Shown: positions 57 through 56,066, counted from the whole stretch's first letter. The stretch is 56,125 nucleotides of DNA, filler included, from Stramenopiles sp. TOSAG23-6 (GCA_900128565.1; 2 parts of 2 records of this genome joined end to end with filler, not necessarily neighbours in it), one strand, 5' to 3'. Notes: generated from the sequence alone by a model not told the origin. Made by a program: numbers and translations.

Positions 57-3000
57 ATCATATATTTTCAGAGCCTCATTTAGAATTGTTCTTTTGAGAT
101 CTATATCGCCATTGCAATGATGATCAGTAAGTAAAAGATCAGGATCTATTCTAATATCATTTGATGACCAATTTGGAAACGACATTACCAAAAATAATTT
201 GCGTTTATCTAAAACTTGTTGAGCGATACTTTGAGATGCACGAACAGGTTTATTCCTGAGCTTTTCTTTCCCATTGACGAGTTCGCCTTGTTGCTTCATA
301 TAGCGAGGTCGATATTTGATAAATTCATCAATATCTGAAATTTCTTTCTCTAATCGTTCAATGCTTTTTCGAGTCCCATGTTTTGGTGCATCTAACGCTT
401 CACAGTAAATTTGCACGGCTTGTTGTAAATATTTGGATATTGTAGATTGGTTTTCATTTGCACTACAACGCAAATCACTCAGCGCTTCGGCCAAATTAGA
501 GGCTCTCCCAAAAATACAATCACATTTAACAATATCACATAGATAGTCTACACAGTCACTCACCCAAGTATCATCAAAAGTAATATGTTGCTTTCTCTCT
601 TTTGTACCACTACAAGACTGTATAAACAAACCTTTTATACGGTTAATTATACTATTATCCACACTATTTTGAACTGGAGTTGTTCCATTATAATCCAAAG
701 GAGGGCGAGTGTTTATTATACGTGTTAACTTTTCATTGCCACAAACCCAAAAGAGATCTCCATCATAATCACCACCAGACATTTTATGCGCCTCGGAATA
801 TTCACCACGGACTGAAAAAACTAAACGTCCTACTCTATCTTTTGAACAGATTTCCTTGAGTTCATCGGGTACTACAGCTTTTAACTTACGTATATCGCCA
901 GGCCACATACAAGGATTCCGAGTGATCAAAACATCACCTTCTAAGTAACATCCTTCGCCATCACAAATAAAGACTTCTCCTGGTTGAAGGACTTGTTCTA
1001 TTGTTGGATCAGTGACACCGATAAAGTAGTAACTTTTAGGTATCTTGATTTTTAGACGACTAATTTGATCAATTAATGGAAGAATAATCAATTTCTTCCA
1101 TATGTATCACAAAAAAATATTTCGAAAATTTCAGTTTTTTTGTTAGGTACAACATTTCATACGAAAAAAAAAATAAATTCAAAATTAAAATGATGAAAAC
1201 GTACTGTAATTGTAGAAATGGATCGGAAAGTGATTGACCTGCCTGTATCATATCATTTAAAAGTGTAGGAGAACGACTAGAGATTGGATCAATTGTATCG
1301 CCTACATGATATTGACGAAATGCAAATCTCAGCATTTCTTGACGAAAATTTGGATTATTCAAAGAATTTGAACATAGAGATGAGTTTGATCTTTGTTGTT
1401 CTGACTCATTGTTGTATGATTCTTTACTCGGTATCATCGAACGAATGATTTCCATTTCTTTTTCATACAAGTCTAGTAAAAACGCAACAGCATTCGATCC
1501 TCCCAAAGCACAAAGCTGTAATGCAAATTGCTGGTTAAGTTTTGCTGGAGTTCCTCTATATGTACGAGATGAAGTGATAACTTCCACTTGACCTTTAGTT
1601 TCTGGATTTTGAAAGCGATGAGATGGGCTGCATTTAATCATGGATTTACGAAGTACGATTACTGTATTCTTGATAACATTGTCAGATGCAGAATGTTTAC
1701 GAAGAATTTGACGCAAATACTCGCGAGATACAACTTGAAGGGTTCCCTTTGCCAATCCTTTGTCGGAATGAATTCTCACCTGAAATACCGCAGGCTGTCT
1801 TTCCATATTAATACATGTAGGAGTGGGTGAAGATTCGGAACCTTTGAAAACATTTGTCGGAAATAAAAATGCGAAATCTTCAGCAACAAAACCAGTTCCA
1901 TCTGTCATGTTTACATGATGATGATACACATCATCCATAACATAAACATCGCCATTTTGTAATGATGGGCCGCGGGCTGTCTTTGAAAAACCCAGTTGTA
2001 GTCTTGCATTAAATTTAGCTATAGACAGAGAAGCCACGTCACCAATCCAACCTCGAACATCATCCACTGTTACATTACAAGTATTATATGCAAGGAATTC
2101 TGCAAATAATATCGCTTCTAATCCTGTTTTATTTCGATTTGTAACTTTGCGTACAAATAACAAAGAATATCTTACATTATATAAAGCTCTTTTCATATCT
2201 TTGCAAGTCACGCAAAATAATTCATTATCAATGTCAGAAAGAGACAATTTTAATTGTGATATGAATATATCCTTACATTTAGACTGGCGTGGGATATCTA
2301 TAGCAATATGAAGAAATCTTGATTTGCCAAATTCTCTTTCGAGTACACCCATTCCATTATCGTCTGCACACATGTATTGTGAAAAAATATTTCAAAAAAA
2401 ACGAAAAAAAATAAATTCGAAATTCAAAAAAAAATAAAACATACACTCCAAATGAAACATCAAATAAACCTTTTTTGTGACCTTTCACGAAAACAAACTC
2501 TCCATTTTGTGGTAAATTTTCAAAAACGATTTTCTCATTGGTACATTCAGTGTATTCATATTCATCAGCGTATTCTCCAGATATTTTACTATTTGCACTA
2601 CTATAATCATCATAATTTTCATCAATATCATCGCCATCAGTAGTATTACTTTCAGAACAAAAATCATCATAATTTTCATCACCATCAGTAGTATTACTTT
2701 CAGAACGAAACTCCAAACTTTTCTGATGGTCCTTATACCGTAAACAATTGTCACAATTATTGCAGCGCTCATAAGTATTTCCATTTTCTCCATTGAAATA
2801 CCTCCGAAAAGCAACTTGGCGACACGTAATTTTGTCACAACAATATGCATGACACTTTTCGATTTCAATGCGTCGTCTCTGTTTTACTATTTCAGTGATT
2901 TTGTTTGAAAATCCTGTCGTAATAGATCGCAATAGATTTTGCTGATCTCGATGAAACAGAACAAGGCATTGGGCAGGTTTCCTATCACGACCTGCACGGC

Positions 3001-4244
3001 CAGCTTGTTGATATAAATGTAATAATGACTTTGGCAAAGCAGCATGAAGCACCCAACGCACATTCTGATTATTAACACCCATACCAAATGCTTCAGTTGC
3101 ACACATTATAATTGGCCATTTACCAGGGTTGGAACAACCCTCAGACCACTTTTTATGTAAGTAAGTCTTGTCCCTTGATGTTCTAATACCACCATGATAG
3201 TAAGTTGCAATGCCTTCGCCAAATTTCAAATTAATATGACGACAAAGTGATTCACATTCTTTCTTGGTAATTGTATAAACAATACCTGGCTTTCCATTAT
3301 TCTTTTTTATGAAGTTTATGACACGAGATAATGTATTTGGGTGTGAATGTATTTTCGAAAAATATTTCAAAAAAAAATTGTTAGGTACAAAATTTCGTAC
3401 GAACAAAAATGGAATTTGAAAAAAAATAAAACATACATGGCCTTGGTTCCTACTATTCCATTCACTCAATTCTTCACAAGCAAAAAAAAGATTTTGTCTG
3501 CCACCAATGTTTTCTCTTATCATCGTGTAGGTGTTAAAATCATCACTACCAAATAAATCATTCGCAATAGTTTTCTGAACAAAAATAGTAGCTGTCGCAG
3601 TCAAAGCAAGCAAACTAATCGATGGAAACATTCTAAGCCACTTATGTAAGTCTTTATAGTTTGGTGATAAATCCTCACCCCAAGTTGAAATACAATGTGC
3701 TTCATCTACAACAACCCGTGAAAGCTTGCCTCTATCATACAATTTTTGAAGGATACATTGGCCTAAAAACAATTGAGATTTTTCACAAACAAAAGACTGA
3801 ACAGTAACGTATAAAAGTCGACAAGTTCCGTTTAATACATCTAATTTGGTCTGTTCATATTCCTTTGAAGAAATATCTGAACGTAGGCACCGTGCATTGA
3901 ACAGTTTCTTCAGCTTCTCTGGCATTTTGTTTATTTGTAACATTTGATCATAAATCAATGATAGAGTGGGTACAATAACAACAGTAAGGCCATCATTCTG
4001 TTTGAAAATGGATTCATATTGTATTTCTACGACGTATTGTTGATTTAATTGCTTCTAGCTGTAGCGCCCGAAAACTCTTAAAAGAAAACAAATTAAAGAG
4101 TAAAGTTGACAGTTTTTCATCCAGTGAGATTCTGTCTCCAGTTTTCCTTCCTCTTCCTTTGCTTTTGGCTGCCTTTATTTGGCGAGTCTTTTGTCTCTTG
4201 CGGGCCTCATTTCGAGCAATCTCAAGTTTTGATAGTGCAGTCAT
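57..4244 (-). CDS. RecQ-family helicase fused to eukaryotic RNA-dependent RNA polymerase (RDR/QDE-1 family); multi-exon, C-terminus runs off the window
   Basis: Exons ~4244-3437, 3346-2445, 2371-1205, 1101-57. RecQ motifs: FRALQLEAI, VIVPTLSLIYDQ, VVDEAHCISTWG, FGMGVN, QQAGRAGRD, CR...CNNCDNC Zn site. RdRP motifs: TDGTG, QVR..KG and, in my manual translation of 1101-57, GVTDP, LQPGEVF, TRNPCMWPGD, SGGDYDGDLFWV (DYDGD at 770-756), ALDAPKHG. Frameshift and missing Walker A near 4014-4030. Confidence 0.8.
1102..1204 (-). other. Non-canonical GT-AT intron (103 bp)
   Basis: GTACGTTTT...TCGTATGAAATGTTGTACCTAAC...GATACAT. Removal gives FLQLQ-WKKLIILPLIDQISRLKIKIPKSYYFIGVTDP, in frame with the RdRP catalytic exon; the next AG is out of frame. 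Confidence 0.85.
2372..2444 (-). other. Non-canonical GT-AT intron (73 bp, lacks the TACCTAAC core); joins RecQ and RdRP parts
   Basis: GTATGTTTT...GAAATATTTTTTCACAATACAT. Removal gives FDVSFGV-CADDNG in frame. Confidence 0.7.
3347..3436 (-). other. Non-canonical GT-AT intron (90 bp, in-frame, stop-free)
   Basis: Full family consensus; translated in the ORF track as VCFIFFQ...VRNFVPNN...SKIH inside RecQ. Confidence 0.8.
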
Positions 4245-4662
4245 TACTTAATTGATTGCAATCACTTGAATTGTTGTCTTGTTTCGTTTTTTATAAAAGA
4301 AAAATGTAAAAGTGACCTTTCTTTGACGTTTCTCACTTCAATTAAAAGTGAAAACTACTTTATCAACTTGCTATTTCAATGAAGAAAATAATGAGTCGCT
4401 ACTCTAAATGTGAAATATATAATAATTCAGTTATGAATTGAAAAATGACAAGAATTTCCACCACAGGCAGTCTTCTTGAATAAATAGGATAGCAAATTTT
4501 ACATTTTACATTTTTTGATTTGAGATTTAAAATTTCGATTTTCATCGGAGATTTTTCCTGAAAATAGAAACTGTCAAGAGACTCAGAGTCACGTATATAT
4601 CAAAAGTAGCAGAAGAAACAACTTCACATCATATGTTTTTCTTCTCATGATTACATAAAATA

Positions 4663-6751
4663 ATGTCGCGGAATGTGTTAGATAAATGGAGATTAGGTGG
4701 TCGTCCAACAGGAGTGAAGCCTTACGTCTACTGTTTTCGAACTAAAAGCTTGAACAGTTATAAGCACGGTGAGTATTGTTGGGATAAACATGGTCAGGGA
4801 GTTGTATCAGCAATTGATCAGAGAAACAGTATAGTTGGAGTTTCGAATTATGCTGCCTTAAATTCCGGTCATTTTGAATTACGAAAGAGTGATGATGCTT
4901 CAAAATACCACATTAAGCAACATCTTCAAGATGGTACAGTTGTGCGCTGTGTGGACACTATTAACAATGTTATAATTGTCCAGCGAAATCGAAACAAATC
5001 ACATAAAAATAGATATAACTTAGTAGAGGACGAGCAACAAAATGTAAAAATAGAAAGAAATCGAAACAAATCACATAAAAATAGATATAACTTACTAGAG
5101 GAACAAAATGTAAAGGTAGAAAAAAGTACTGTAGAAATTGCTCCAAAACGAAGAAGGAGAAGGAAGAAGAAAAAGAAACACGATCCTGGAGGTCTAAAAG
5201 CGTTGAAAAAAGAAATGAAACAAATGATGGGAATATCATCTGTAAAACCGAAAAAAGATAATTCTATATTTGAATCTCAAAAGGAAACAACACAGCAACT
5301 ACATCTAAATTCACAAGAAAAAAAGATTATTCGTGTTTTGAACACAGTATCTATATTTGAAGGTATGCTATTAGAAACGTTAGCTGAGATGGCCCGAGAA
5401 ATGGAAGAAATGACATTCCAAGATGGTTACTCTATCATCAAACAAGGTGCAGAAAATGATAATGAATTTTATGTTTTGATAAAAGGTTCCGCTAATGTAT
5501 TAATTAAACGTGTTGCTGTTGCTGCACTGAAAGCACCAACGTTCTTTGGTGAACTGGCGCTCTTAAATGATGCTCCAAGAAATGCCACAATAAAATCTCG
5601 TGGAACAACTACATGCCTAATCCTTCGCCGTGCTGCGTTTAACCGATTTGTTAAAGAAAATACGAAACGTTGTACGTTTTTATCATGAATTTTAATTTTA
5701 TTTTTTTTCATACGCAATTTTGTACCTAACGAATTTCAGTTTTTTTTAATATTGTTTCACAATATATGCATGGAAAATGCAAATATGGAAAGAGAAGAAA
5801 AAGTTTTTCATGCTGCAAATGCTAATCTTATTACAGCCACAGAATATCTTGATGAATACGACACAAATACACGAAATACACGAGACGCTGGGATATTGAA
5901 AGTGAAAGATGCAATTAGTATTTTACGGAATGCTATAAAAATGACCTCTGAAAATAGAGTAAGGGGCAATCCTTTGCAATTATTCCACATATATATGTAT
6001 GTTTTATTTTTTTTCAAATTCGAATTATTTTTCGTACGAAATTTCGTACCTAACGAATTTTTTTTGAAATATTTTTCCAAAATACATACAACTTGGTAGA
6101 GGTCATCTTAATTTAGAAAATGAAGATGAAGCTCAAAGAGCTTTGATGGAAGCCACTCGAATTATGAAAATAAATGATCTTGATCATAAAAATCCTCGAA
6201 ATGAAATTTTATTAAGAGAGGTATTCGGAAATGCTTTAGGGTGGTTTGGTCATATCAGAGCAGCGAATATTCATTTTATAAAGGGAAAACGATTGGCAAA
6301 GGAGATTGGAGATCGACAACAGGAGCTTCAATTTGATATGTTTTACAAAGAAATCCTTTTAAGAAATGGACGATTTGATGAAGCTATGGAACTAACAGTG
6401 CTATTAAGAAAAGAAAAGTTTATTGGAAGAAAACAGAGAACTTTAAAAAAAGAAAAAGAAAAACCACCAGATTATCTACGAAAGAGTACACATAATACAT
6501 ACCATCTTTTCTCGGATGATGCTTTACGATGGATAGTACACAAAAGAGTGTATCCTAACCCTGATTCTACTTCATCTATTGCAAAGATTGGAACCATGAA
6601 TAGATCGGAATTACTAAATTTAATTATTGCATTTGACGATAGCGTAACATTCCATGAAGCAATGACATTAAAATGGCAACACCATATGCGTAGTATGAAT
6701 AGTGATAGTCTCGTAGCTCCACCTTTTTGCAAACGATTTCCCAAGATTTAA
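4663..6751 (+). CDS. Cyclic-nucleotide-binding (cNMP) domain protein with helical/TPR-like C-terminal region; 3 exons (4663-5671, 5768-5996, 6088-6751)
   Basis: IIKQG..FYVLIKG..FFGELALLNDAPRNATI cNMP motif; three ORFs join in frame after removing two family introns. Confidence 0.75.
5672..5767 (+). other. Non-canonical GT-AT intron (96 bp)
   Basis: GTACGTTTT...TGTACCTAAC...CACAATATAT. Removal gives TKR-C-MENAN; the internal CAG at 5737-5739 is out of frame. Confidence 0.8.
5997..6087 (+). other. Family intron, GT-AT (91 bp); an in-frame AG alternative exists at 6099
   Basis: Near-perfect consensus copy; removal gives FHIY-I-QLGRGH. Confidence 0.75.
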
Positions 6752-6887
6752 TCATCGGGATTATACTGATTCAATAGGTTGGTACACTCTATGATAATCA
6801 TATCTAGTAAAACCTAACCCTAAGGTAGCTAATAGGTAAACTAAAGTTTATTATAAGAAAAAAACAAATGGATCTTCTTTTAATATT

Positions 6888-7757
6888 TTAACTTTTTTTT
6901 TTCTTTCTTTTTTTCGCTGCTAGTCGCTTTTCCAATTTTTTTCTTTGAGCAGCCTGAGCACTGTCATATTCGGTTGCCCTAAGATTAGTCTCTCGTGCAT
7001 GTTCTTCATGGATTTTCTTCTGAAACTGGAGTGTCTCTGATGCCGAAGGAGCACCCTGCATATCTTCTTCAATATCGTTTAATCTCTCTTGTAATCTTTC
7101 CGAGCGTTTGCGTTGTTCTTGCATTTCCTGGCGAAGCTGGTTGTTTTGGTTTTGTGCATCCTGAAATGCACGGCGTTCGGCCTCGAACTTTGCGCGTTCC
7201 TCGTCTAGCGCAGCTTTTTCTGAAGATACTGTCGCTGTTTTTGCAGATTCCGCCATAACCATTCGAAGTCTATTATAAAGAGGTACAAACTCTTCAAATG
7301 ATAGTACGCCATCTCTGTTATAATCTGCTGCCATGAATTGCTGGTTTGTAAAAACTTTAGGAAACTGCAGATCCTTTAGTAGTAGTGAAAGTTCTGCGCG
7401 GTCAATCAGCATGTCACCAGAAGTGTCATATGTAGCAAATATCTCTCTTATTTGATCTTCTCTCTCATGCAAAGAGTGCATCTGGTCATGCTCAATGTTT
7501 CCATTTGTACCAATTGCATTGGCATTATTTGCTCTCATGCGAGCACCACAAGAAGGACACCCAAATTCTACTACGCCGGGAGGTACTCCAAGTATTGTTT
7601 TGCAGCTGATACATGTACAAAGCGACTGCTGCAATTGGTGTGAGGGTTTGTTTTCTGGCGGTAAGGCCATTACAGTACCACATTTAGGGCAGCCAAATCT
7701 ATTGTGGCCAGGAGGCACCATAATTCTCGTACCGCATGTTGGGCATCCAACCTGCAT
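6888..7757 (-). CDS. Zinc-ribbon (CxxC x2, LSD1-like) + EF-hand pair + coiled-coil protein
   Basis: CPTC..CPKC, CISC..CPSC; DTSGDMLIDRAE and DYNRDGVLSFEE EF-hand loops; charged helical tail. Confidence 0.8.
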   Translation of the reverse strand: MQVGCPTCGTRIMVPPGHNRFGCPKCGTVMALPPENKPSHQLQQSLCTCISCKTILGVPPGVVEFGCPSCGARMRANNANAIGTNGNIEHDQMHSLHEREDQIREIFATYDTSGDMLIDRAELSLLLKDLQFPKVFTNQQFMAADYNRDGVLSFEEFVPLYNRLRMVMAESAKTATVSSEKAALDEERAKFEAERRAFQDAQNQNNQLRQEMQEQRKRSERLQERLNDIEEDMQGAPSASETLQFQKKIHEEHARETNLRATEYDSAQAAQRKKLEKRLAAKKRKKKKS

Positions 7758-8076
7758 TTATGTATCTATTGGGTGCTCTACGTACCTTGGAAGGAATTCA
7801 GTCCAACTAAAACTGTAAAATAATGGATATGTCAATAGATATGATATCATAGTACGGGTCAAGTCAAAAAGTGTAACTGCCGTGTAGGTAGCTTGAGGAC
7901 TTTGATCCTTGAAAAAGCTCTACAAGTCTTATTAAACCAGCCCGTCAATCATTCTTGATTTGTTGCATGTATACATATGGGAACATCAATTTAGATGTAT
8001 GGTCTAGCAGGCTACTATAATACTATGATTGCACTTTATATACCTTATACCTTGAGAAAAGTTTAGTTTCAGTATA

Positions 8077-11000
8077 ATGGAAATGACACCTGAAGATGAT
8101 GAGAAGAAAGGAGTTCTTGAAGTATCTTCTATACCTGGTCCGAAATCGCGAATGGAGGAAAATACAGAATATATAGATGTATCATCAACAGAAATTACAT
8201 CAGTAATGAACAACGAAATGCACATATCTGTAGATGGGAGTAAAGTATCTGTATCTAACCATCCTACTTCGAAGCCGGCTGGTAAGAGAAATGTAGGAAA
8301 ACATAACAATAACAGTAATAATTATAGCTCAAAATATACAGAAATACGACCAGTGACAATGACACCAGACGCAAATGACCTGATTATACCAAAGAATACA
8401 ATAAATATGTATGATGATGAAATGCAGTTGACTAAAATTCAAGACAATGAAGAAAAAGGCGACGAACATAAACTAGATATATTTGCCATACCGAAGAAAA
8501 AAAAGGGTAAAAGCCTTCACAAGACAGTTGGTGGTAGATATCGCGCAATAAGTTCTGTCCATTATTTACACTGCCTTTCATCGAGTCCTTCGACACAAGC
8601 ATTACGTCCAGATCAAATTAGTATTAAAAGAAAGACTACTATATTCCCTAGAATTGAGGTAAAACTAGGACATTCAACCGCTTTACTAAATGAATTGCTA
8701 AATTTATCGGATACAAAAAACAGCCACAATAGAAAAACTCGTACAAGAAAGAAAAAGAATCAAAGTAAGAAAACAAATAGAGTTACAAAATCTACTTCTT
8801 ATGGTAGTGGGACAAAACGAACAATGAAAATATCGGATTATCCTGACTTTCCAAGAAGACTTATGTATCAGGATTCTGCTGAACTTTATCCCCAGCTCAG
8901 CCTTGATCTAACAGATTGGGGCTGTGGCGATGACGTTTTATATTTAGTTTCTCGAGCTGGTAAAAGACGTATCAAGAAAGGAGGGGTTATTCTCCCACAA
9001 TTATCAGATTTAGAAGGACATAATACTATTTTAACTTCGTTGGTCATTAATGGCAGTGGAGCCTGTCGAAATTCTAACAAAACTACAAATGTGGGAATAT
9101 CCCATCTGAATGCATGTCAAGCATTACAGAAAATTACACTATCAAATCTTCCCTATATTACTGAAAAAGCTTTCTTTCATATTAGAGCAACACATGCTTT
9201 CCTTACTGAAGTAATACTCGATAACTGTCAAAGTGTCGGTGATAAAGCAATTATCCATTTAATGACTGGGTGTAGGCGCTTAAACAAATTAGAATTAAGA
9301 AACCTAGGGGGTATTACTGATGAAGGCCTTGCTGCAATTGCAATTCGTCCTCCTCCCCCAGATATAGAGGTTGTTAGTGGTGGCGATGATGTTAACATGA
9401 AACATTCAAAACCCACAGACGACTATTTTAAAAAACCGGTATTTCATGCAATTACAGAACTTGTCATTGCAAACTGCCCTAGTGTTAGTGATAAAGGAAT
9501 TTCAGATATGTTTGCTGGATCTTCGCTGAAACATCTAAAAGTTCTAAAATTAATAAAGTTGACAAAACTAACTGATCTATGTCTAATGGGGCTAATTCGA
9601 GGTGAAAGTGCCTGTCAAACAATTGTGGCTTTAAAAGCGTTAACTATATCATGTGTGCCCATCACGTCTTCAGGTTTAGCTTGGATTGCTACAGGCTGTC
9701 CGCAACTTACATACCTTGATATTTGTGGTAGTGATCGTGTTGATGATATTGGTATTTCAAAGCTCGGAGAACATTGTTTGCAATTGCAAACCTTGAATTT
9801 GAATGGATTGAAACTCATTAGTGATGATGGTATTCGAAATATGTTACGAAATGTTCACTGCCTTACATCGCTTGATATATCTGACATGCCACGTATTACG
9901 GATGAAGGTATACTCGCGGTTTCACGATACTGTCCTGATTTGAAAAAGATAAGTATTGTTGGTATTAATAAATTAACAGATTTGTCAATGTGTGCGCTTG
10001 GTGGTGGATGCACTGCACTCACTGATCTTAATATCTCTGGCCGTGGTCCCCAAGTTGCTCAAAATGTTGGTATACGAGCACTTTATGGATCTCCTAGACT
10101 GACTGATAATGCCATTATTGCACTCGCTATTGGTGCACGTTCGTTGAAAACATTGGATCTCTCTGGACTAGCCAGTTTGACCAATTCTACACTTTCAGCT
10201 ATTGCAAGGTATTGCAAGGATATATCAATTTTAATTCTTGCAGGTTGTACAGAAATCACAGACACAGGTATTATTGAAATCATTGAGTCGTGCTCTGCTT
10301 TACGAACTTTAAATTTATCTTACTGTGGTAAAATTACCGATGTCACATTGGCCGCGATAGGTCGAGGTTGTCGCTCTGAGACATATGAAAATGGTAAAAT
10401 GGAAGTTTCCTTCGAGCCAATATTATTGGAAAATTTGATTCTTAACTGTTGTGGTAAAATTACAGATATTGGGATGATAAGACTGGTAGGAGATAATAGT
10501 CCTTCAGTGCCAACCTCAAATCTAACGCGACTTGTGCCGCAAATATCTCACCCTCTTCAAAATGAAGAAGTGTCACGCGGGTGTCGAACACTTACAATGA
10601 TTAGCTTTAAAACATGCCCACTACTCACTGATTTTACTCTGTTAGTTATTGGCAGGTCTTTAATTGAATTAAAAACCCTTGACATAAGTTTCTGCGATTT
10701 CATGACATTGCAAGGTCTGCATTCGTTGTTCCCTTCTGGAAATGGAGTGTGCAAATATCTAAATTCCATTAAATTTTGGGGATGTTTTCACATAACCGCA
10801 AAAAAATACAGTGCACGTCTTGATACGGCTGCAGAAGAATGGGTGGCAATGGGTAGATTACACAAAGATCGTAAGAAAATTTGCCCACTCCCTAATCAAG
10901 CATCTCTAGAAAAACAAATATCATTTGAAAAGCTAGTTCAAAACGAACTTGCCGCAGCGAAAATTATCCAAAACGAATATGTAAAGTATAGAAGACGCAA

Positions 11001-15244: not shown

Positions 15245-16603
15245 TTATAACCGATAATTTGCTGCTAAAGCTGCCAACAATAGAACAGCAAGAGGCACTA
15301 GGTATATATGTTGATGAATTACATGGGTAATGCGTCCTAGAGCAGTCGGAGGTAATTGGAAGTCAGTGTGAATGTTACTGAATCGTTGACGAATTTCCTC
15401 TGGAATTGATAGTTGGTTGTTGTTCAAGTTCAAAGTCCAAAGTTTTCTTAGTTGACCAATTTCCGTTGGAATTGAACCAGATAGGTTGTTACAATTCAAG
15501 TACAATTCTTTGAGATTTGTTAGTTTACCAATTGTAGCAGGAGGTATTGAGCCAGTTAGTTCATTGTTGTTCAAATGCAATTCTTCGAGATTTGTTAGTT
15601 TACCAATTTCACTCGGAATTGAACCAGATAGTTTGTTGCTGTACAACCACAATGTTTGGAGATTTGATAGTTGACCAATTTCTTTTGGTATTGGACCAGT
15701 TAGGTTGTTCATATACAAGTACAATTTTTCGAGATTTGTTAGTTGACCAATTTCTTTTGGAATTGGACCAGTTAGTTTGTTATCAGACAAGCTCAAATCT
15801 ACGAGCTTTGTTAGTTGACCAATTTCTTTTGGAATTGGACCAGATAGTTGGTTTCTTCCCAACTTCAATTCTTCAAGATTTGTTAGTTGACCAATTTCCT
15901 TTGGAACTGAACCAGATAATTTGTTGCTTTGCAAGAGTAATTTAGTAACACTTCCTTCAGTACACGTAACTCCCCCCCATTCACAAATATCTGCATCTGT
16001 TTTCCAATTTGTCTTACGCCTCCAACCATCTCCATTTGTACTATCATACAATATAGTTAGAGCTTCTTTTTCCAATAAATTACGATGTTTCACTTCTACA
16101 CGGCTTAACCATTCGGCACAGGTTTCGGTTTCATTCCTTGTAAGGGTGGTTGTTTCTACGTTGAGGCGAACAGAACTTTCAAAAAACATTCTGAAAATTC
16201 CTTTAACACGGTCATACCACTTCCATAAAGATTCATTTGGGGTTTGTTTAGTAAGTTCTTTCATTCGGTCTTCAGTGGTTTTTCCTCCGAAATTTTCGAC
16301 AACTTTCATTAGTAAGTAATCTGCTTCATCCTTAACCTTTTTACTGGTATGCTGATGTATCACAGCATTTGCAGTGGACAGAATCATTCTTTCAGATGGA
16401 GTAAGAAATTCACTCAGAGGGCGCATAGCAGAGTCTGTGAATTTTTGCGCACCGACGTCTTCATTTGCGAGACGATTAGCAGCACGTGTTGGATTAGTGG
16501 GAGAGGCGTTTCCCTCACGGAGGAGATGTTGTGAAGCATTGACAAGAGTAATCAACATGAATAACGACAACATAGAAGTGTATCGAGTGAGTAAGATTGT
16601 CAT
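15245..16603 (-). CDS. Secreted/membrane-anchored LRR protein, plant-specific 24-aa LRR type, 8 repeats
   Basis: Hydrophobic N-terminus, N-cap ALTILYDSTNG..W..CEWGGVTC, LxxLxLxxNxLSGxIPxEIGQLxx repeats, hydrophobic C-terminus. Confidence 0.85.
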   Translation of the reverse strand: MTILLTRYTSMLSLFMLITLVNASQHLLREGNASPTNPTRAANRLANEDVGAQKFTDSAMRPLSEFLTPSERMILSTANAVIHQHTSKKVKDEADYLLMKVVENFGGKTTEDRMKELTKQTPNESLWKWYDRVKGIFRMFFESSVRLNVETTTLTRNETETCAEWLSRVEVKHRNLLEKEALTILYDSTNGDGWRRKTNWKTDADICEWGGVTCTEGSVTKLLLQSNKLSGSVPKEIGQLTNLEELKLGRNQLSGPIPKEIGQLTKLVDLSLSDNKLTGPIPKEIGQLTNLEKLYLYMNNLTGPIPKEIGQLSNLQTLWLYSNKLSGSIPSEIGKLTNLEELHLNNNELTGSIPPATIGKLTNLKELYLNCNNLSGSIPTEIGQLRKLWTLNLNNNQLSIPEEIRQRFSNIHTDFQLPPTALGRITHVIHQHIYLVPLAVLLLAALAANYRL

Positions 16604-17046
16604 GATATGTTTTTCCAATCAAAAGTAATACCTTTATGTTTGTACTAATTAGTTACACGAGAACTTCGCATCGATCATGAAAGAGTCAGCGTCGACGTCA
16701 GCTGACCAAATTTAACACGAAATCTCATAAATTCCTACTATCAAAATATCAATCTAAAAATTCTAAAACAAAAAAAATTACAATAATTTGCTCGGAATAA
16801 AAATCCATAAATGTTAATTTATTATACAATCACAAGACTATAGTTCAAACAAAGTCCTAATCTACATCTTATTTATAATATCATTATGATATTATCGAAA
16901 ATAATAAATAAAAAAAACATTCTTTTTATCAGTAAATATTTTTTCTTAGAATGAGAGAATCCAAATAAAAATAACTAGAATCAAAGAAATTTTTAAAACA
17001 AGACTCCAATCCTAAAAAAATATACAAACATCACTCTCATTATCAG

Positions 17047-18639
17047 TTATAACCGATAATTTGCTGCTAAAGCTGCCAACAATAGAACAGCAAGAGGCAC
17101 TAGGTATGGACGTTCATCTATATGTTCATATATTACACGGCCAATACGTCCTAGAGCAATCGGAAGTTCGTGGAAGTCAGTCTCAATGTTACTGAATCGT
17201 TGACGAATTTCCTTTGGAATTAATAGTTGGTTGTGATTCAAGGTCAAAAGATCGAGATTTGTTAGTTTACAAATTTCCGTTGGTATTGAACCAGATAGTT
17301 GGTTATGTGACAGTTGTAACCAATCTAGATTTGATAGTTGGCCAATTTCTTTTGGAATTGAACCAGATAGATTGTTGTTGTGCAAGTTCAAATCTTCAAG
17401 ATTTGTTAGTTGACCAATTTCCATTGGAATTGAACCCGATAGCTTGTTGTTGTACAATTCCAAAGTTTTGAGATTTGATAGTTGACCAATTTCGGTTGGA
17501 ATTGAACCAGATAGTTGGTTACGATACAAGTACAATGCTTTGAGATTTGTTAGTTGACCAATTTCCGTTGGAATTGGACTAGATAGTTTGTTTTCGTTCA
17601 ACGACAATCTTTCGAGATTTCTTAGTTGACCAATTTCCTTTGGAATTGAACCAGTTAGTTTGTTTTCGTGCAACAACAATTTTTCGAGCTTTGTTAGTTG
17701 ACCAATTTCTTTTGGTATTGAACCAGATAGTTTGTTGCGATTCAAGCGCAATTCTTTGAGCTTTGTTAGTTTACCAATTTGATTTGGAATTGGACCAGTT
17801 AGTTTGTTATCAAACAAGTACAATGCTTTGAGATTTGTTAGTTGACCAATTTCTTTTGGTATTGAACCAGTTAGTTCGTTGTTTTCCATGTTCAATTTTT
17901 TCAGATTTGTTAGTTGAAAAATTTCAGTTGGTATTGAACCAGATAGTTGGTTGCTAAACAAGTACAATTCAGTAACGCTTCCATTAATACACGCAACTCC
18001 CTCCCATATACAAATATCTGCATCTGTCTTCCAATTTGTCTTACGCCTCCAACCATCTCCATTTGTACTATCATACAATAAAGTTAGAGCTTCTTTTTCC
18101 AATAACTTACGATGAATACTTTCTACACGTTGTAGCCATTTGTCACAGGTTTCGTTTTCTTTTTTTGCGAGGGTGGTTGTTTTTTCTTTGAAGCGTTCCA
18201 AACTTTCAGAAAACATTCTGTGAATGCTTTTCACACGGTAGAGCCACTTCAATAAAGGTTCATCTTTGGTTTGTTTGGTAAGTTCTTTCATTTGAATTTC
18301 CACTTCTTCAGTGGTGTTTCCTCCGAATTTTTCGACAACTTTCATTAGTAAGTAATCTGCTTCATCCTTGACCTTTTTACTGGTATGCTGATGTATCACA
18401 GCATTTGTAGTGGACAGAATCATTCTTTCAGATGGAGTAAGAAATTCACTCAGAGGGCGCATAGCAGAGTCTGTGAATTTTTGCGCACCGACGTCTTCAT
18501 TTGCGAGACGATTAGCAGCACGTGTTGGATTAGTGGGAGAGGCGTTTCCCTCACGGAGGAGATGTTGTGAAGCATTGACAAGAGTAATCAACATGAATAA
18601 CGACAACATAGAAGTGTATCGAGTGAGTAAGATTGTCAT
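17047..18639 (-). CDS. Secreted/membrane-anchored LRR protein paralogue, 11 repeats
   Basis: First ~110 aa nearly identical to the 15245-16603 gene; more and different LRR units. Confidence 0.85.
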   Translation of the reverse strand: MTILLTRYTSMLSLFMLITLVNASQHLLREGNASPTNPTRAANRLANEDVGAQKFTDSAMRPLSEFLTPSERMILSTTNAVIHQHTSKKVKDEADYLLMKVVEKFGGNTTEEVEIQMKELTKQTKDEPLLKWLYRVKSIHRMFSESLERFKEKTTTLAKKENETCDKWLQRVESIHRKLLEKEALTLLYDSTNGDGWRRKTNWKTDADICIWEGVACINGSVTELYLFSNQLSGSIPTEIFQLTNLKKLNMENNELTGSIPKEIGQLTNLKALYLFDNKLTGPIPNQIGKLTKLKELRLNRNKLSGSIPKEIGQLTKLEKLLLHENKLTGSIPKEIGQLRNLERLSLNENKLSSPIPTEIGQLTNLKALYLYRNQLSGSIPTEIGQLSNLKTLELYNNKLSGSIPMEIGQLTNLEDLNLHNNNLSGSIPKEIGQLSNLDWLQLSHNQLSGSIPTEICKLTNLDLLTLNHNQLLIPKEIRQRFSNIETDFHELPIALGRIGRVIYEHIDERPYLVPLAVLLLAALAANYRL

Positions 18640-19147
18640 GATATGTTTTTCCAATCAAAAGTAATACCTTTATGTTTGTACTAATTAGTTACACGAGTGT
18701 GCGCATTGCAGGCTCGCTGAATTGATTTGAACGAAATTTAAAGTCAGCTGACCTTTTAGGTAAGAAATTTTCTACCAAATCAAAAATCAAAGGCTAACTA
18801 GAATCGGATCTGAAAGTTGTAACAGTTACTGCTTAGAATAACCCTAGGTACCAGTACTGCGCCACTCAATACAATAATGCCTCTCGAAGGAGTCGTTATA
18901 TTATTATTATTCTGAATTGCAGTTTTCTAAAAATGTATACAGTGTTCTACGTACAAAAAAGATACGTAGAACGCTGAATGTATAGTAATATGTAAAGCAT
19001 TAAAAGAAATATAATACATCTTAAATTAAATTCGTTTATTTAACTGTACACTGTACACATTGTAAAAGTATATAGATCTAAATTGTACCTATCATAATTA
19101 TTAAGTTCTCACATCCTTCTAGAATAAATTATAAACATCAAAGATCA

Positions 19148-23058: not shown

Positions 23059-23457
23059 ACTTTAAATAACTTCCTTATAGTTTAAGATAAGAAGTATAAT
23101 TATAGCGAATGCTGAATATTTAGCTCACTACTACTACTAGAAAAATAAAGGCTACTAAAAGCCAGAAAGTACAAAGCGTGGTGTTGTGATGTCTAGTCGA
23201 ACCAATTATTGACCGGAGCCGACTATTTTCATTGTTTTTTTTCTGGATTTCGTGTGCATCTTGGAGCGATATTGTACTACATACTATTTAATTGAATTAT
23301 AACATTTAAACATTGTGTTTCGATAATATGGTAGTCACAAGTATAATGCTTGTGATGATATAGAGTGTATGAAGTTACAGTGATTTGATTTTCATATTTT
23401 TACATTTTGAAAGTTCGTTTATAAATAATCAAGTGTTATGAAAAATAAATAAGAACG

Positions 23458-28450: not shown

Positions 28451-28513
28451 TTTTTTTTCGTACGAAATTTTGTACCTAACAAATTTTTTTTGAAATATTT
28501 TTCCAAAATATAT
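28451..28513 (+). other. Partial family intron at contig start (3' end TAT)
   Basis: TCGTACGAAATTTTGTACCTAAC...CCAAAATATAT followed by an open frame continuous with the ankyrin ORF. Confidence 0.75.
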
Positions 28514-47925: not shown

Positions 47926-49063
47926 ATGATCAAGACGAAATTAGAAACAAAAACAATGGGACCTACCCAAAATGCAATCCAAGAAAAGTATGGCTATAGA
48001 CAATGGTTGTCTAAAAACTATGATTTTGCTAAAAAGCTTGAGGACGGAGCGCGTATGCTAACGTTGTTATGCTCTTCACAACTTGATGAGAGGTCTGGTC
48101 TCCTAGCTGAAGGTGTGTACGCAGTTATAAATACAATAGGAACTTTAAACGACCATATTATATCTCGAGGTGAAACAACAATTGGTAGCAAATCTGCATG
48201 GGCATTGACCCTGATAAGTAATCTTGCTGTAGTTGCTGAAATGCTCTCTGCTAGAAAAGGAAATAAGTCAAAGTGGCGTACAATTACTTATGTCGAGTTG
48301 TTGAAGGCTGCTCTTAGAATTATGATTCTTATACGTAGTGGCTGGGCTACCCAAATAAATGATTCTTTGTACATGCCAATTGACGACGATGTTCAAAGAA
48401 CAAAAGATCAACAATTGTGGTGGAGAGGTCGTCGTAGTGGCTCTTTGATACCACTTCCTTCTGGACTCTCTGCTCACAAATTCAAACAATTGAAGAACAA
48501 AGGAACACTTGTTCGTTCTCCAAATACTCCACGAGGTGTATATTCCAGTATTGGTGAATTACTGTATATAATACGACCTGTAGTTTTCTCATTGATGCGA
48601 TCTAAACAAAATACAAATACAAAGAAAAATATGTTCTGGGCTCCTTTTCTCCTATCCCTTGCTATTGACTTTGCGAGCTATCGTTGTTCAAATGCAGCTG
48701 TGAAATCAGCAGAAAAACGTGATGAAGCAACTACTGTAGGAGGCGGATCAGTACCATCTTTTATTAGTATGGAATTTTCTAGACGAAAACTTTTGTGGTT
48801 ACTTTACGCACTTAGAGAACCTTTCTTCAGTTCTGTCACAAAAAGAGCAACAGACAAAGTTAGCTCTTTGTCAAGTATGTTTTATTTTTTTCAATTTCAA
48901 AATTATTTTTTTTTCGTACGAAATTTCGTACCTAACAAATTCAACAAAAAAAAATATTTTTCACAATATATATTACGTTCCACTTTTTGGTATGTTAGTT
49001 CGTTATATGCTTGATATGTTGTACTATATCCAGCGACATCACTTTTATATCTCTGGCTCATAA
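47926..49063 (+). CDS. PEX16: Peroxisomal membrane biogenesis protein PEX16; exons 47926-48874 and 48972-49063
   Basis: ELLKAALR, GELLYIIRPVV, RRKLLWLLYALREPFF; spliced C-terminus NYVPLFG...QRHHFYISGS*. Confidence 0.85.
48875..48971 (+). other. Non-canonical GT-AT intron (97 bp)
   Basis: Family consensus; removal restores the PEX16 C-terminus; no AG within ~25 nt downstream. Confidence 0.9.
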
Positions 49064-49812: not shown

Positions 49813-50194
49813 TGGTACGCACTTAGTATTGTTACAATCAAGACATTTCGATGATATAATCAATCTCCAATATTATTTATATTATATAAGCTTGGAGTAT
49901 GAAAGAATACTAGCGAAAACACGAAAAATAAATTAAAATTTGACCGATATGAAAAAAATACGCTCATTGCGCGCCAAACGTCGGTCGACTCGATCGATCC
50001 ATCAAAAAAAAAGAAGAAGAAGAAGTGATTGATGTGTGTGTGCCGCTTCGATTGATTCCGATTGATTGCGATTGGTACCAGGTCCCAGGAGCTGTTCTTT
50101 TTTTGAATTATTGATCATTCACAACAGCGACACTGTTCACGACAACGAACAGCAACACGAGTCTGTTCAAGGCAGTAACTGTTTCGAGATAACG

Positions 50195-52156
50195 ATGAAT
50201 ATATCGTTTTTCTCGGACGTTTCCACCACAAGTTACCAAAATCTTTCGGCAGCTTGTGTATTTGACGGCTGCAATCAGTCATCAATAGTATTCGGGAATG
50301 ATCAAGAAAATTCCTTTGATAGTAATTTTAACGCTTCCGCAGAGTTTGGTCGGGGAGAAAAAGAAGAAGAAGTGATTGATGACTCCATTTATCAAGGGAA
50401 GCCCCCCATAGAAATCAAAAGTCCACGTAGTCCACAACTAAATGGTACAAATTTGTTTTTGCCAAGGTCCAAATTGACTGAAAGTATCTTGGAAAGCAAG
50501 TCGCCTGTACATTTGCATCATTCATTTCAAATTTATAGTTCAAGTTTTATTTATTTTATATCCAATGTGTCTAATGAATTTCAAATTTGAAATATTCTTT
50601 TACAATATATGTTCCTATATCTCGAAATGATCAAGATGATATTAGAAATGATGTCAGTGTCCCCGCTACTGCCTGTTCTGACTTCTCTACCCCGAGTAGT
50701 TTTGACGGTTCTAGTGCACCAGGTGGAGGCGTTGATGTGACTTCTCGTAAACATACTGGTGATCAAGATGATATTAGAAATGATGTCAGTGTCCCTGCTA
50801 CTGCCTGTTCCTCCCTCTCTACCCCGAGTAGTTTGATCGGTTCAAGTGCAGCAGGTGGAGGCATTGATGTGACTTCTTGTAAACATACTGGTGGATACAT
50901 TCATGATGACCATACAAACAAAATAACACCCAACAAAAATGTACATTTACGTCATTCATTTCAAATTTATAGTTCAAGTTTTATTTATTTTATATCCAAT
51001 GTGTCTAATGAATTTCAAATTTGAAATATTCTTTTACAATATATGTTCCTATACCTCGAAATGACCAACAAGATGATATCAGAAATGATCTCAGTGTCCC
51101 TGCTACTGCCTGTTCCTCCCTCTCTACCCCGAGCGGTTCAAGTGCAGCAGGTGGAGGCATTGATGTGACTTCTTGTAAACATACTGGTGGATACATTCAT
51201 GATGACCATACAAACAAAATAACACCCAACAAAAATGTACATTTACGTCATTCATTTCAAATTTATAGTTCAAGTTTTATTTATTTTATATCCAATGTGT
51301 CTAATGAATTTCAAATTTCAAATATTCTTTTACAATATATGTTCCTATATCTCGAAATGACCAACAAGATGATATCAGAAATGATGTCAGTGTCCCTGCT
51401 ACTGCCTGTTCTGACTTCTCTACCCTGAGTAGTTTGGTCGGTTCTAGTGCAGCAGGTGGAGGCATTGATGTGATTTCTCGTAAACATACCTGTGGAACTC
51501 GTGGAACTGGTGGTTACATTGCTTGCCCTAAATGGACCACTTCAAAAAAAAGTGCCATATTGGCAAGAGATATTTTGTGTTGTCAAAAAAAACAACAACC
51601 CGATCAAGGTGGTCTTGTCATGCACCGTCATTGCAAAATACAACACTCGAATCTTGGTGGACGAAATTGTTGTTTGAATGCCTTCGACTTTGCAACTGGA
51701 AAATTTCGTACAGTCACAAGGAAGCAGATGCAACTGGAAGGTGCAGGCGACATCAGCATTATTGACATAGCCAAATACGTTAATGAATGTGGAAAGAAGG
51801 TACCCTTTAGATTGCGTACAAGGCCTGGGATGACCTGGGGTTGCCTAATTTCAAAAAAAGAAGGAATATTTGTTGGTCGTAGCTATGTTTATTCTGATAA
51901 ATCTCATCATTACATCGTTTATGATGCCTGGCGCTCGATCATATATATTGGATGTGGTTTTGCAGATGTGATGATCCAGGAAAGTGATCGTGAGGATCCA
52001 AAAGCCTTTGAGAAAAGATTTTCTGATGAATATGGCCTTGGTCTCCAAGTGGAACATTTGTACTGTTTGTATGTCATTGCAAAGCATGCATTCAAAACAA
52101 CATACAACACTCCAGATGACTACAAGCCTAAGTCGAAGAAGCGTAAGCTAATGTAA
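50195..52156 (+). CDS. Internally triplicated protein with C-terminal Cys/His domain (possibly papain-like); exons 50195-50506, 50611-50940, 51045-51236, 51341-52156
   Basis: Four ORFs join in frame via three phase-0 GT-AT introns; DDIRNDVSVPATACS repeats; NCCLNAF...HYIVYDAWR. Confidence 0.65.
50507..50610 (+). other. GT-AT intron (104 bp), divergent family member, copy 1
   Basis: GTACATTT...GTCTAAT...GAAATATTCTTTTACAATATAT; in-frame join. Confidence 0.75.
50941..51044 (+). other. GT-AT intron (104 bp), copy 2
   Basis: Near-identical to copy 1; in-frame join. Confidence 0.75.
51237..51340 (+). other. GT-AT intron (104 bp), copy 3
   Basis: Near-identical to copy 1; in-frame join to ORF 51434-52156. 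Confidence 0.75.
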
Positions 52157-52993: not shown

Positions 52994-55900
52994 ATGAGTG
53001 GACGTGATCGTTTGATTGATTACTTTGTTTGTTCTTCTTGTGATGATTATGAATCGCAGCTGCAAAGTATGCTTGCCGAAACTTCAGAAGTTTATGGATC
53101 GGATCTTCCGATAACAGATCTTGCGGTCATCTTTCCAACGTGTGGTGATTCAGTTCCCGATGGTTTCGAGGTCATTGATAGAAGCTATGGTGGTCAAAGT
53201 GCAGACTTAAATGGCGGGCGATTTATGTCTAAGATTTGCTATATCTGCGTCGAACGAAAGTCTAACAATCGTCAACCTATTATTGACATAAAACTAATCA
53301 AAGTCAATGAAAGTGACATTGTAGAATACAGAAAATATGTACCTGGAGTTACACCAGAATCCCCTACGAATAAAACAACTTTATCAGCTGGAGGTCGTAC
53401 AATATTAAAACTAGCTCTCTCTGGGTATATTATTATTAAGGAAACACCGTCTGGTTTGCCTGCAAATTTAAATATGGGTCGGTTTGGTCCAGACATTTTC
53501 ATGGCATTTAGAAGACAAGCAGATGTTCCTACTGTTGAAGAATTATACAGATCATTGGCCCCCATTGTCGAAGTTGCCGTCTTACAGCCTGGTAATACCA
53601 CACCACCTCCAGGTTTTTTTATGGATCCTACAAATGTCAATGAAGTGAAATTATCAAGGACACCAGCACGGCATATCTGTTTCCGACGTGCCGAAGCCAA
53701 TTCTTTAATAGATTATACATTTGAAGCAAAAATTTCAGATCGATTTCCAGAGAGTAATTATTCTGACTTTGATTTGCCTTCAATTATTCATCATTTTTGT
53801 TTCCCTCAGGGAGTTAAACTAAAAAGATGTAAAAATGATGCGATGCCAATACCTACTTGGCATATCTTTGTACTTACCGGTGGTGCTGGACAAAGAGTAT
53901 TCGGAGCTTGCCTAACGTTTTATGAGAAACTTTCAAAGGAGACAACGTCTGCAATTCAAAATCTACAATGGAAAAATCGAATTTCATTGATAAGTAATGA
54001 AGGATTGAAATTAGAACCGATAAAATCTAGTGTATCGAATGGACCTACAGGTGAAATGTCTAATATGTGCACATATACACCAAAGTGTATTGCTGTACTC
54101 TCACATTTTGCATTTTTTAAACCCCTTAAACAGTTTCTCACACAATTATATAGTGTTTCGTTAGGTACTTCTCTTGTTCCAATTGAACGGATAATTGGTC
54201 AATTTCTACTCAATGTGCCAAGACCTGTCTCTGGAGAGCAATCAGTGATGATGTGGCCTGCTAAAGATAAAACATTTTCAGAATTAACATTCAATCCTGA
54301 TAATCTAAACAATCCGGAAATTGAGGGATCTCAAAAAGTCATTAGTGGAGCTTTCGATACAGTTGTAATGACTGCGGATGAACGTGGTGACAATGGACAG
54401 TTTGTAACATCTAAAAAAGTTCCCGCAGGATCTGTAAAATTTACACCGTCAGATGTCAAATTCTCAGCTCCAAGGGCTGATTACCTCCCTTTGTTAGATT
54501 TATCATTTGTTCCTTTATTTCAACATTTAGGGTGTGATCTTGTAATTGCGGTAATCTATACACTTCTATTAGAAGAACGTGTACTTTTTTATCATTCATT
54601 TAAATTTTGTGTTTTGGTAGAAAATTCTGTACCTAACAATTTTGTTTTGAAATGTTTTTCACAATACATGTACTTTTGGTTTCCCGACAACTTGCACTAC
54701 TTGGTCAAGTGGGTGAGCTTTTGCGTGCATTACTTTTACCCTTCCAATGGCAAGGTGTTTACATACCAGTTTGTCCTAATTACATGTCCGGATTTTTAAA
54801 TGCTCCGATGCCTTTCATATTAGGTATATCACCTGATGAATTACCAAATGATTTGGTACCAAAAGAAGGCCAACTCGCTGTCCCTGATGATGTTTTGTGT
54901 GTTAACCTTGATAGTAATTCAGTGTCCATGGGTTGGCGAGGCAATCAAAAAGGTGATACAGTTAGTGATTTAATCCGTGGGTCTGAATGGCGTGCATGTT
55001 CTAATGCAGCAAATGAGTTAGCTAAAGTAGTAAAATCTAGTGGAATTGATCCAAAAGGTCCTTCGTATTCTTGTATGTTTTCATTAGAAATTTCGAATAT
55101 AGTATTCAAATGTATTGTTCAAATATATTGTTTAAATATATTGTTTACATATATTTATGTTTGTATCAAATGTTGTTTCCAATAATTATTGAATTTGACA
55201 TAATTTTTCACATTACATCTACTTCAAATGACAACATCAAAAATAAAACAACAAACAATTTAGATTTTGGCTTTGCATTCAAGACTGAAATGTGTGTAGA
55301 TTACAATTTGCCACCACTACGCATCCGTGCAATTGTCTTGACAATGATGTGTGAAATTCTTGGAGGTTATGTATGTTTCATCGCCAACATTTTTGTAAGA
55401 AAATTCTGTACCTAATGATTTTTTTACTAACAAAATATATACATATATATATTTTTCACAATTCATAGACGTTTTCTTAAAATTGGATTTCCAAAAAATA
55501 ATACTCAAATAAAATCTGATGCTAGTGTTTCATCAAGTAGCTGTGAGACTAATCATGTATGTTTTATTTTTTTTTTACAAAAAATTCGATTTTTTTTTTC
55601 GTACGAAATTTTGTACCTAACAAAAAACAATTTGAAATATTTTTCCAAAATACATTTCGTATACGTTTATTTGAAAATAATAGAATTTACACCAAAAATA
55701 ACAAAAATACAAATTCTGATTGTTTATGTAAATATTTGAGTATTGACCGAGAAGGACCTCTTTATGTTTTCACAATATATCTAACTCGTTCATCGTATGA
55801 TATGATTCCAAAAGAAATGCAAATAATTATAGAAAAAAGTAATAGATGTACGTAGTCTTGTTATATTTCGTGTTTTTTTTTTTTTTTTGTAAAAAAAAAT

Positions 55901-56066
55901 TTGTAAAAAAAAGTCATACCTAACGATTTTTTTAAACAAAAACAAAATCTTTTTTCACAATACATCTCATAAACAAAATGGAAACAAAATTAAGGGATTA
56001 ATTCGTGTAATTCCTGTAATCTTTCAACAAGGCATTAACGAGAAAGCATTACTTCAAGACTGGGTT
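52994..56066 (+). CDS. MABP + uDENN/DENN/dDENN Rab-GEF (DENND4-like); multi-exon, runs off window
   Basis: LIDYFV, PITDLAVI, ADLNGG, DRFP, FCFPQG, FVLTG, FGACLTFYE, PKCIAVLSH, LLEERVLLVS, LLPFQWQGVYIPV, APMPFILG, GGYRRFL after removing family introns. Confidence 0.85.
54581..54669 (+). other. Non-canonical GT-AT intron (89 bp)
   Basis: Removal gives LLEER-VLLVSRQLALL (DENN core). Confidence 0.85.
55073..55218 (+). other. Non-canonical GT-AT intron (146 bp, diverged interior)
   Basis: GTATGTTTT...TTTTCACATTACAT; in-frame join PSYS-S-TSNDN. Confidence 0.7.
55371..55466 (+). other. Non-canonical GT-AT intron (96 bp)
   Basis: Removal gives LGGY-RRFLKI; using the adjacent AG (55467-55468) gives a stop within four codons. 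Confidence 0.85.
55557..55655 (+). other. Non-canonical GT-AT intron (99 bp)
   Basis: Full consensus, ends CCAAAATACAT. Confidence 0.75.
55659..55780 (+). other. Putative GT-AT intron (122 bp) following a 3-nt micro-exon
   Basis: GTATACG...TTTTCACAATATAT; needed to regain the frame LTRSSYDM. Confidence 0.55.
55848..55965 (+). other. Non-canonical GT-AT intron (118 bp)
   Basis: GTACGT...ATACCTAAC...TTTCACAATACAT; in-frame join SNR-S-HKQNG. Confidence 0.75.

Follow-up and report, generated by a model that had tools for sequence, protein, structure and literature searches.

Genes and introns of the window

The window, a stretch of 56,125 nucleotides (nt; filler included) from Stramenopiles sp. 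TOSAG23-6 (GCA_900128565.1), has a base composition of 35% GC and is densely packed with eukaryotic genes, whose long single-frame open reading frames (ORFs) encode ordinary eukaryotic domains (RdRP, RecQ, cNMP-binding, WD40/AIP1, PUS3, PEX16, DENN and others). Its introns are copies of one introner-like element, about 23 in number and spread through unrelated genes; the element brings its own AT 3′ end, an observation confirmed far beyond chance, and exact removal from GT through AT restores reading frame and homology. Pfam identifies the hosts as genes for an RdRP, a RecQ helicase, a cNMP-binding protein, an AMP-binding reductase, WDR1, PUS3, PEX16 and a DENN protein, together with a repetitive gene. 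We put at roughly 70% the probability that the family would be removed by U2-type splicing at a terminal YAT (Y, pyrimidine). Seawater metagenomes contain DNA near-identical to the window, and ~12% of sampled words of positions 1–10000 were present in each of two metatranscriptome runs. Rfam and tRNA searches of the window returned no Rfam family, small nuclear RNA (snRNA) or tRNA.

Nineteen complete introns were delimited (coordinates run from the first base of the donor to the last intron base, and hence from high to low on the minus strand), and four partial copies (a, k1, k2 and u) are truncated where the window or a contig stops, at the window ends or at an assembly gap. A previous sequence-only reading had counted 17 AT, one AG and one AC terminus among 19 introns. 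We recovered the same 19, 17 of them GT–AT (11 CAT and 6 TAT) and one, intron e, GT–AG with a CAG end; the AC call probably refers to intron i, whose ambiguous end is fitted slightly better by AG.

The copies measure 73–146 nt (mostly 89–104 nt) and are AT-rich (GC 0.15–0.25). A 22-nt core (CGTACGAAATTTTGTACCTAAC) was matched 12 times with at most three mismatches (0.00 expected from 100 shuffles), and an nhmmer profile built from nine copies gave 15 matches at E < 0.001, plus weaker matches to more diverged copies; these 15 profile matches and all core copies are oriented sense to the ORF that they interrupt. End-to-end alignment of 15 copies, including one on a metagenome contig (L001), revealed conserved GTAYGT, GTACCTAAC and AAATAT blocks and TTTTYNAMAATAYAT at the 3′ end; the copies carry a GTAYGT donor, a CTAAC branch site, a T-rich tail and a conserved A(C/A)AATAYAT terminus. 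The donor is GT in 19/19 complete introns and GTATGT or GTACGT in 12 of the 18 tabulated (the other six being GTGCGT, GTACAT three times, GTACTT and GTATAC), and CTAAC or CTAAT lies 32–42 nt before the 3′ end in 15 of these 18. Measured against a consensus of the five youngest copies, identity ranges from 98% down to 54%, a spread which indicates that the family has been active over a long time, and the old copies retain GT...YAT and intact flanking ORFs. The dominance of GT–AT thus goes back to the ends of one proliferating element and not to many independent introns.

When genome, viral and metagenome contigs were scanned with the 22-nt core, the first two gave no match and the last gave one locus, on contig L001, with an additional copy, and no transcript. 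The interrupted gene of this contig ends (L001 2300–2480, minus strand) close to CCCTAAA-type (TTTAGGG) telomere-like repeats. Two perfect palindromes also occur in the element (for example, at 5997–6087) and may be protein-binding sites or hairpins: some copies have AAATTCGAATTT, and the core has TTCGTACGAA, to which weak antisense self-matches in the profile search are due.

On the minus strand, the RdRP gene carries the 5′ part of copy a (1–56; donor GTACAA near 56; nhmmer 40–1 on the minus strand, E = 8.6e-5), which is cut at the window start, and intron b (1102–1204; GTACGT...CTAAC...GATACAT), a core match with 75% identity to the young-copy consensus whose removal joins frames of 395 and 366 codons. 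Copy c (2372–2444; 73 nt), from which the branch-site core is deleted, lies between the RecQ and RdRP ORFs, and its removal from GT to AT would unite the two (536 and 433 codons) in frame; the splicing of this copy, which has no CTAAC, is uncertain. Its removal suggests a RecQ–RdRP fusion gene (RecQ ORF, 2357–4054; RdRP ORF, 1069–2391), although the RdRP ORF has an ATG of its own soon after and copy c is devoid of the branch-site core, so that the genes are possibly separate. Intron d (3347–3436), a further core match, lies in the RecQ helicase gene, is open in frame and reads as a 30-residue insert. The AMP-binding/NAD_binding_4 gene harbours the young copy e (19747–19835, minus strand), which has G where the others have the homologous T, and the PUS3 (tRNA pseudouridine 38/39 synthase) gene harbours intron f (35772–35872, minus strand), a core match.

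All further copies lie on the plus strand. The cNMP-binding protein gene contains two core matches, g (5672–5767; 3′ end TATAT; 70% identity to the consensus) and h (5997–6087; 3′ end TACAT). WDR1/AIP1 contains the degenerate intron i (from 27052, with a tentative 3′ end at 27235), which has lost the family 3′ end and gives an nhmmer match at 27067–27107, and intron j (27450–27541; GTGCGT...CTAAC...ATCCAT), which is followed by a 5-nt direct repeat (GTGCG). Farther along WDR1, the 5′ half of a copy (k1, 28293–28350) runs into an assembly gap, after which a 3′ half (k2, 28451–28513; 3′ end AATATAT) lies upstream of an ankyrin-repeat ORF. The gap itself (28351–28450) consists of TTAATTAATTAA, a six-frame stop linker, between two 44-N runs inside a family copy. 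Here two contigs, both with the repeat at their end, have apparently been joined; the C-terminal part of WDR1 is lost at this point, and the ankyrin ORF is probably unrelated to WDR1.

The PEX16 gene contains intron l (48875–48971; 3′ end TATAT; core match), downstream of which 29 codons remain. In the repetitive gene at 50066–52156, which consists of tandem coding units, intron m (50507–50610; GTACAT...CTAAT...ATATAT) is an old copy with 54% identity to the consensus, and n (50941–51044) and o (51237–51340) are its tandem duplicates; a near-identical intron in each unit indicates that the intron was duplicated along with its exon. In the DENN gene, intron p (54581–54669; GTACTT...CTAAC...ATACAT) lies inside the DENN domain and has an 8-nt direct repeat (GTACTTTT), and is followed by q (55073–55218; 146 nt; GTATGT...TTACAT, with no CTAAC), r (55371–55466; GTATGT...ACTAAC...TTCAT, with an AG immediately after), the young core match s1 (55557–55655), s2 (55659–55780; GTATAC...ATATAT) and t (55848–55965; GTACGT...CTAAC...ATACAT). 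Only TTC separates s1 from s2, so that 55557–55780 can be read as one 224-nt intron or as a pair of introns with a 3-nt micro-exon between them; a single intron here would be a composite that arose by insertion beside or into an existing copy. The 5′ part of a last core-matching copy, u (56067–56125), is cut at the window end.

Frame restoration and competing boundaries

Each intron was cut from the family donor GT to the terminal YAT, and the longest open frames on either side were compared. The longest upstream and downstream frames were joined in 18/18 introns; the flanking frames typically span hundreds of codons and the second-best frames 4–45 codons. In this count the end of intron i was picked among in-frame sites, n and o derive from m by tandem duplication, and s1 by itself gives a frame mismatch that is rescued by the 224-nt intron ending at 55780 or by s1, the 3-nt exon and s2 together. 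Fourteen tests are independent and have ends set by motif, and all 14 pass (chance 1/3 each, ~2e-7 overall), as does the L001 copy on the metagenome contig. The first AG lying 8 nt or more past the branch site served as a control and was in frame in 4/15 introns, which is the chance rate, and the AG at 55468, two bases beyond the end of intron r at 55466, is out of frame. The sequence-only reading had asserted that cutting at AT restores frame and motifs, that nearby AGs are usually out of frame and that the intron ending at 55466 must be cut before its AG; these counts, together with the PUS3, DENN and WDR1 comparisons below, bear it out on all three.

Canonical alternatives were sought as GT/GC...AG pairs within ±36 nt that keep the frame and are free of stops. 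Among 17 introns, six (d, l, p, q, s and t) have none, e is already canonical, and the other ten have at least one; the conserved donor is kept only in c, g and h, at the cost of 12, 12 and 4 codons, respectively (in h through GGTAG, 12 nt downstream).

Repeats at the junctions let a boundary slide without changing the product, and we enumerated every equivalent register. GT–AT is the sole register common to all non-AG introns (for b it is the only one possible, and for p the only one with a GT donor), and GT–AG arises from no register. The sequence-only reading had described a GT–AT intron system in unrelated proteins; GT...AT indeed proves to be the sole boundary that fits all non-AG copies, but the introns belong to one introner-type family and are not unrelated to each other. 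An AT–AC register is open only to d, f, h, s1 and, with a corrected donor, t, and as a reading of all copies it was rejected by this listing.

The same listing bears on the possibility that a minor (U12-like) spliceosome, or splicing in the AT–AC register, handles the elements, since both tolerate non-AG ends. AT stands directly before six of the 15 independent introns where 1.36 are expected (P ~0.001), five introns permit the AT–AC register, and the branch motif CCTAAC loosely resembles what we take to be the U12 consensus. However, b, c, g, j, l, m, p, q and r cannot be read as AT–AC, and the donor is GTAYGT rather than the U12-type RTATCCTT, which occurs in no aligned copy. In the available parts of a study of Physarum polycephalum, GT–AT accounts for 17% of ~1,014 non-canonical introns among ~175,000, and these non-canonical introns have U12-type 5′ motifs (bioRxiv 10.1101/2020.10.12.336362), a precedent for GT–AT ends outside the major class; their branch site lies 9–12 nt from the end (~10–15 nt for U12-type introns), whereas the distance here is 32–42 nt. 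We therefore regard U12-like or AT–AC splicing as quite improbable.

Homology at the junctions

Comparison with homologous proteins places the exon boundaries at the same positions as the frame test. In PUS3, the last full codon upstream of intron f aligns with residue 297 of the human PUS3 chain, with a read-through residue on 298; the downstream ORF aligns from 297/298, with its first fully exonic residue on 299. The junction codon AT|A encodes isoleucine and falls on isoleucine 298, so that the join is gapless (the AT–AC register of this intron would yield an identical mRNA). In the DENN gene, the exon upstream of intron p ends in TLLLEER and the downstream exon starts with VLLVSRQL, its first residue corresponding to DENND1A residue 196 (HMMER) and to position 111 of 186 of the DENN profile (Pfam). 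Six intron-encoded read-through residues were placed on DENND1A 190–195 (MLYERR), where the LLEER of the real exon end matches by eye. The upstream DENN exon gave no match against PDB, and Pfam gave none for the 29-residue PEX16 tail or three short DENN exons.

For WDR1 we built a profile from 22 orthologues with <70% mutual identity, drawn from 79 proteins of 540–640 residues among the 120 matches listed. For intron j the AT cut scored 384.3 bits, ~6 bits above the nearest canonical alternatives (378.3 and 378.1); an AG 90 nt downstream gave 372.0 bits, shifts of 3 or 6 nt gave 380.5–381.4 bits, the upstream TAT led to an in-frame stop and retention of the intron to eight stops. For intron i the same profile scored AG at 27235 at 384.3 bits, CAC at 27229 at 381.6 and TAT at 27214 at 376.8, which gives a weak preference for an AG end at 27235, several in-frame acceptors being possible.

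The RecQ evidence at intron d is supportive but not precise. Between aligned blocks the query has 59 residues where BLM has 14, and the alignments with BLM and RECQ1 break near the element-encoded residues; HMMER places part of the element peptide on BLM residues that, by eye, are better matched by the upstream exon.

Searches of a protein collection with WDR1 exon 3 (against longer proteins) and cNMP exon 2 returned no match, and WDR1 exon 1 searched against longer proteins returned orthologues of at most 43% identity, none of them a transcript product of this organism. Against representative proteins, matches to exon 1 were dominated by multi-WD40 giants, the sole near-identical entry being a public protein of 262 residues (P0002; window 26343–27131). 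This ORF-style entry has the sequence of WDR1 exon 1 and runs on into intron i, which indicates that existing calls for this genome disregard these introns.

Proposed origin of the elements

As in introners, similar copies occur as introns in unrelated genes and the coding sequence is intact once they are removed. Across 15 independent introns the junction direct repeats sum to 37 nt, compared with 10.3 ± 3.9 expected, a total reached in none of 20,000 simulations. Their length is not fixed (0–9 nt; j, for instance, has GTGCG and p has GTACTTTT), and the element termini, GTAT...ATAC, are weakly inverted. This excess argues for DNA-level insertion, accompanied by microhomology or short target duplications, rather than for reverse splicing, and we infer such an origin; the repeats do not single out a transposon superfamily.

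An origin of this kind raises the possibility that the elements are transposon insertions removed inexactly, so that the genes are disrupted or the GT donor is joined to the next AG with altered or frameshifted products, in which case GT...AT would only delimit the insertion unit. With junction repeats above chance, deleting an element together with its repeat restores the frame by construction, and c, g and h have canonical alternatives that keep the donor. Yet all copies are sense to their genes, the old ones (54–76% identity) lie between long intact ORFs in phases that fit only the AT cut, the first AG is in frame at no more than chance level, and PUS3, DENN and WDR1 are collinear with their homologues only once the elements are removed exactly. 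Inexact removal is, on these grounds, unlikely.

A proposed U2-type route with a terminal U

We propose that the element spread into unrelated genes and acts as their introns, supplying its own splice signals: each copy brings a yeast-like GTAYGT, a branch site (GTACCTAAC), a T-rich tail and the A(C/A)AATAYAT end. The major (U2-type) spliceosome would cut from GT through the terminal YAT, 32–42 nt past the branch adenosine; this acceptor keeps the −3 pyrimidine and −2 A of an ordinary YAG but has U as its last base where G is normal. G would also be accepted at this position, the young copy e being an ordinary GT–AG intron cut at the homologous site. Of the features of U2-type introns, the GT hexamer, the branch site and the pyrimidine-rich stretch are present and the AG end is replaced by AT in 17/19; these signals, the retained −3 and −2 bases and copy e together point to spliceosomal removal with a terminal U. 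That removal takes place in RNA, by the spliceosome and at this exact bond is our interpretation of the DNA.

Several points weigh against U2-type removal at the terminal YAT. To our knowledge, a U2-type second step onto a terminal U has not been described at such a scale. Introns c, q and s2 have no CTAAC. YATs ahead of the used one would have to be skipped: a TAT is conserved 15 nt before the end, in frame in most copies, and is excluded only by homology or a stop (f and j) or by its absence (p and t). A first-YAT rule was rejected on account of this TAT, and choice of the terminal site would need more than the triplet, perhaps distance or the A(C/A)AATAYAT motif. For young copies, moreover, a recent precise insertion would by itself restore the frame without correct splicing, so that under DNA-level insertion frame restoration alone is no proof for them. 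The case for splicing is carried by the strict sense orientation, by old copies between intact ORFs and by the homology results.

A process other than splicing could also yield exact removal: excision from DNA, as for the internal eliminated sequences of ciliates, or excision of RNA by pairing of its ends outside the spliceosome, as for the nonconventional introns of euglenids. The ends of young copies are complementary (exon AT plus GTAT with ATACAT) and pair in the minimum-energy fold of two of seven copies, but the fold z-scores (−2.46, −2.43, −0.55, 0.06, −1.01, −1.00 and 0.68) show no consistent structure, and the end pairing is lost in diverged copies; conserved end-to-end pairing was rejected as a property of the family. 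The copies also bear spliceosomal 5′ and branch signals and are strictly sense, neither of which DNA elimination needs. A separate excision system, which the sequence-only reading had offered as an option, is accordingly disfavoured by the GTAYGT, CTAAC, T-rich tail and orientation, and we consider excision of either kind very unlikely.

The G that closes introns ranks with the most conserved nucleotides of eukaryotic genes, and in solved spliceosome structures it is paired with the first intron G. If the elements are spliced by the U2-type route proposed above, the spliceosome of this marine protist may be altered. We lean slightly towards a major spliceosome that would routinely finish the second step at YAU through a lineage-specific change in 3′-site recognition (for example, in Prp8, Slu7, Prp18, U2AF or the pairing of the first and last bases), a change that would have permitted, or co-evolved with, an invasive introner from which almost all introns of the organism would now come.

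The finding would be of high interest if RNA data confirm it, as an unusual splicing rule in which a ~95-base mobile intron with a regular GT start closes with AT, where almost all introns have AG. A genome whose introns are mostly mobile and end in U would be a natural experiment on 3′ splice-site choice, and the known range of introners would be extended; gene models of this organism and its relatives that allow only GT–AG would be systematically wrong for a large share of genes.

Other features of the window

Two neighbouring leucine-rich-repeat genes on the minus strand (15245–16618 and 17047–18654) are paralogues that have an N-terminal LRRNT_2 domain of plant type and share extended near-identical sequence tracts. 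The minus-strand regions 22386–24926 and 23679–26111 contain nine single Ns as well as an 810-codon ORF that abounds in Asp, Gly and Ser and gave no Pfam match, and minisatellite-like GTGTGTGAGAAT repeats occur close to 23430–23600.

Comparison with known intron systems

The yeast-type U2 introns of intron-poor genomes combine a strict GTAYGT with CTAAC and end in YAN (N, the final base), tens of bases downstream after a T-rich stretch. The introns of the window share all of these features, from donor to YAN 3′ site, and differ in that the final base is T rather than G and that earlier YATs are skipped, so that no simple first-site rule applies.

A full-text literature search on GT–AT, introners and non-canonical introns, which did not cover the introner surveys' family tables, where a related family could be listed, found no description of an intron complement dominated by GT–AT, in line with the sequence-only reading, which knew of none. 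In two papers on marine stramenopile single-cell genomes, standard gene-prediction tools are used and the available parts do not mention unusual splice sites.

Physarum shares the occurrence of GT–AT boundaries, and a transposon origin of its introns was proposed by its authors (bioRxiv 10.1101/2020.10.12.336362). In contrast to what the available parts of that study describe, GT–AT is the majority class here and is accompanied by U2-type signals, with a branch site far from the 3′ end.

Expansions of non-canonical introns have been described in Fritillaria and other tunicates (PMC13326754), in Amoebophrya (PMC7789003) and in euglenids and diplonemids (PMC12621601), and the portions of these reports available to us resemble the present case in that most introns escape GT–AG and some derive from mobile elements with direct repeats. 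By the same accounts, termini in those lineages vary, a 5′ GT has frequently disappeared and euglenozoan intron ends are base-paired (PMC12621601). In the window, unlike in those lineages, conservation extends to the 5′ GT, to the branch site and to A at −2, and one 3′ dinucleotide dominates, with no conserved fold seen in the seven copies folded.

The closest resemblance is to introners, families of which are described from Micromonas, Aureococcus, dinoflagellates, fungi and others (PMC9860276, Gozashti et al. 2022; PMC12130899, 2025). Like these, as far as the available parts of the two surveys describe them, the element occurs as many near-identical short introns in unrelated genes, with GC below that of the exons, coding sequence restored on removal, short direct repeats at the junctions and copies of mixed age. 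The surveys tabulate 5′ GT, GC and GA and, in those parts, name AG and AC as the only 3′ ends (PMC9860276, PMC12130899); in the 2025 survey, a family whose splice sites were mostly unfamiliar was kept only if RNA data backed it (PMC12130899). What sets the present family apart from the introners so described is that the element's own 3′ end is AT in 17/19 introns.

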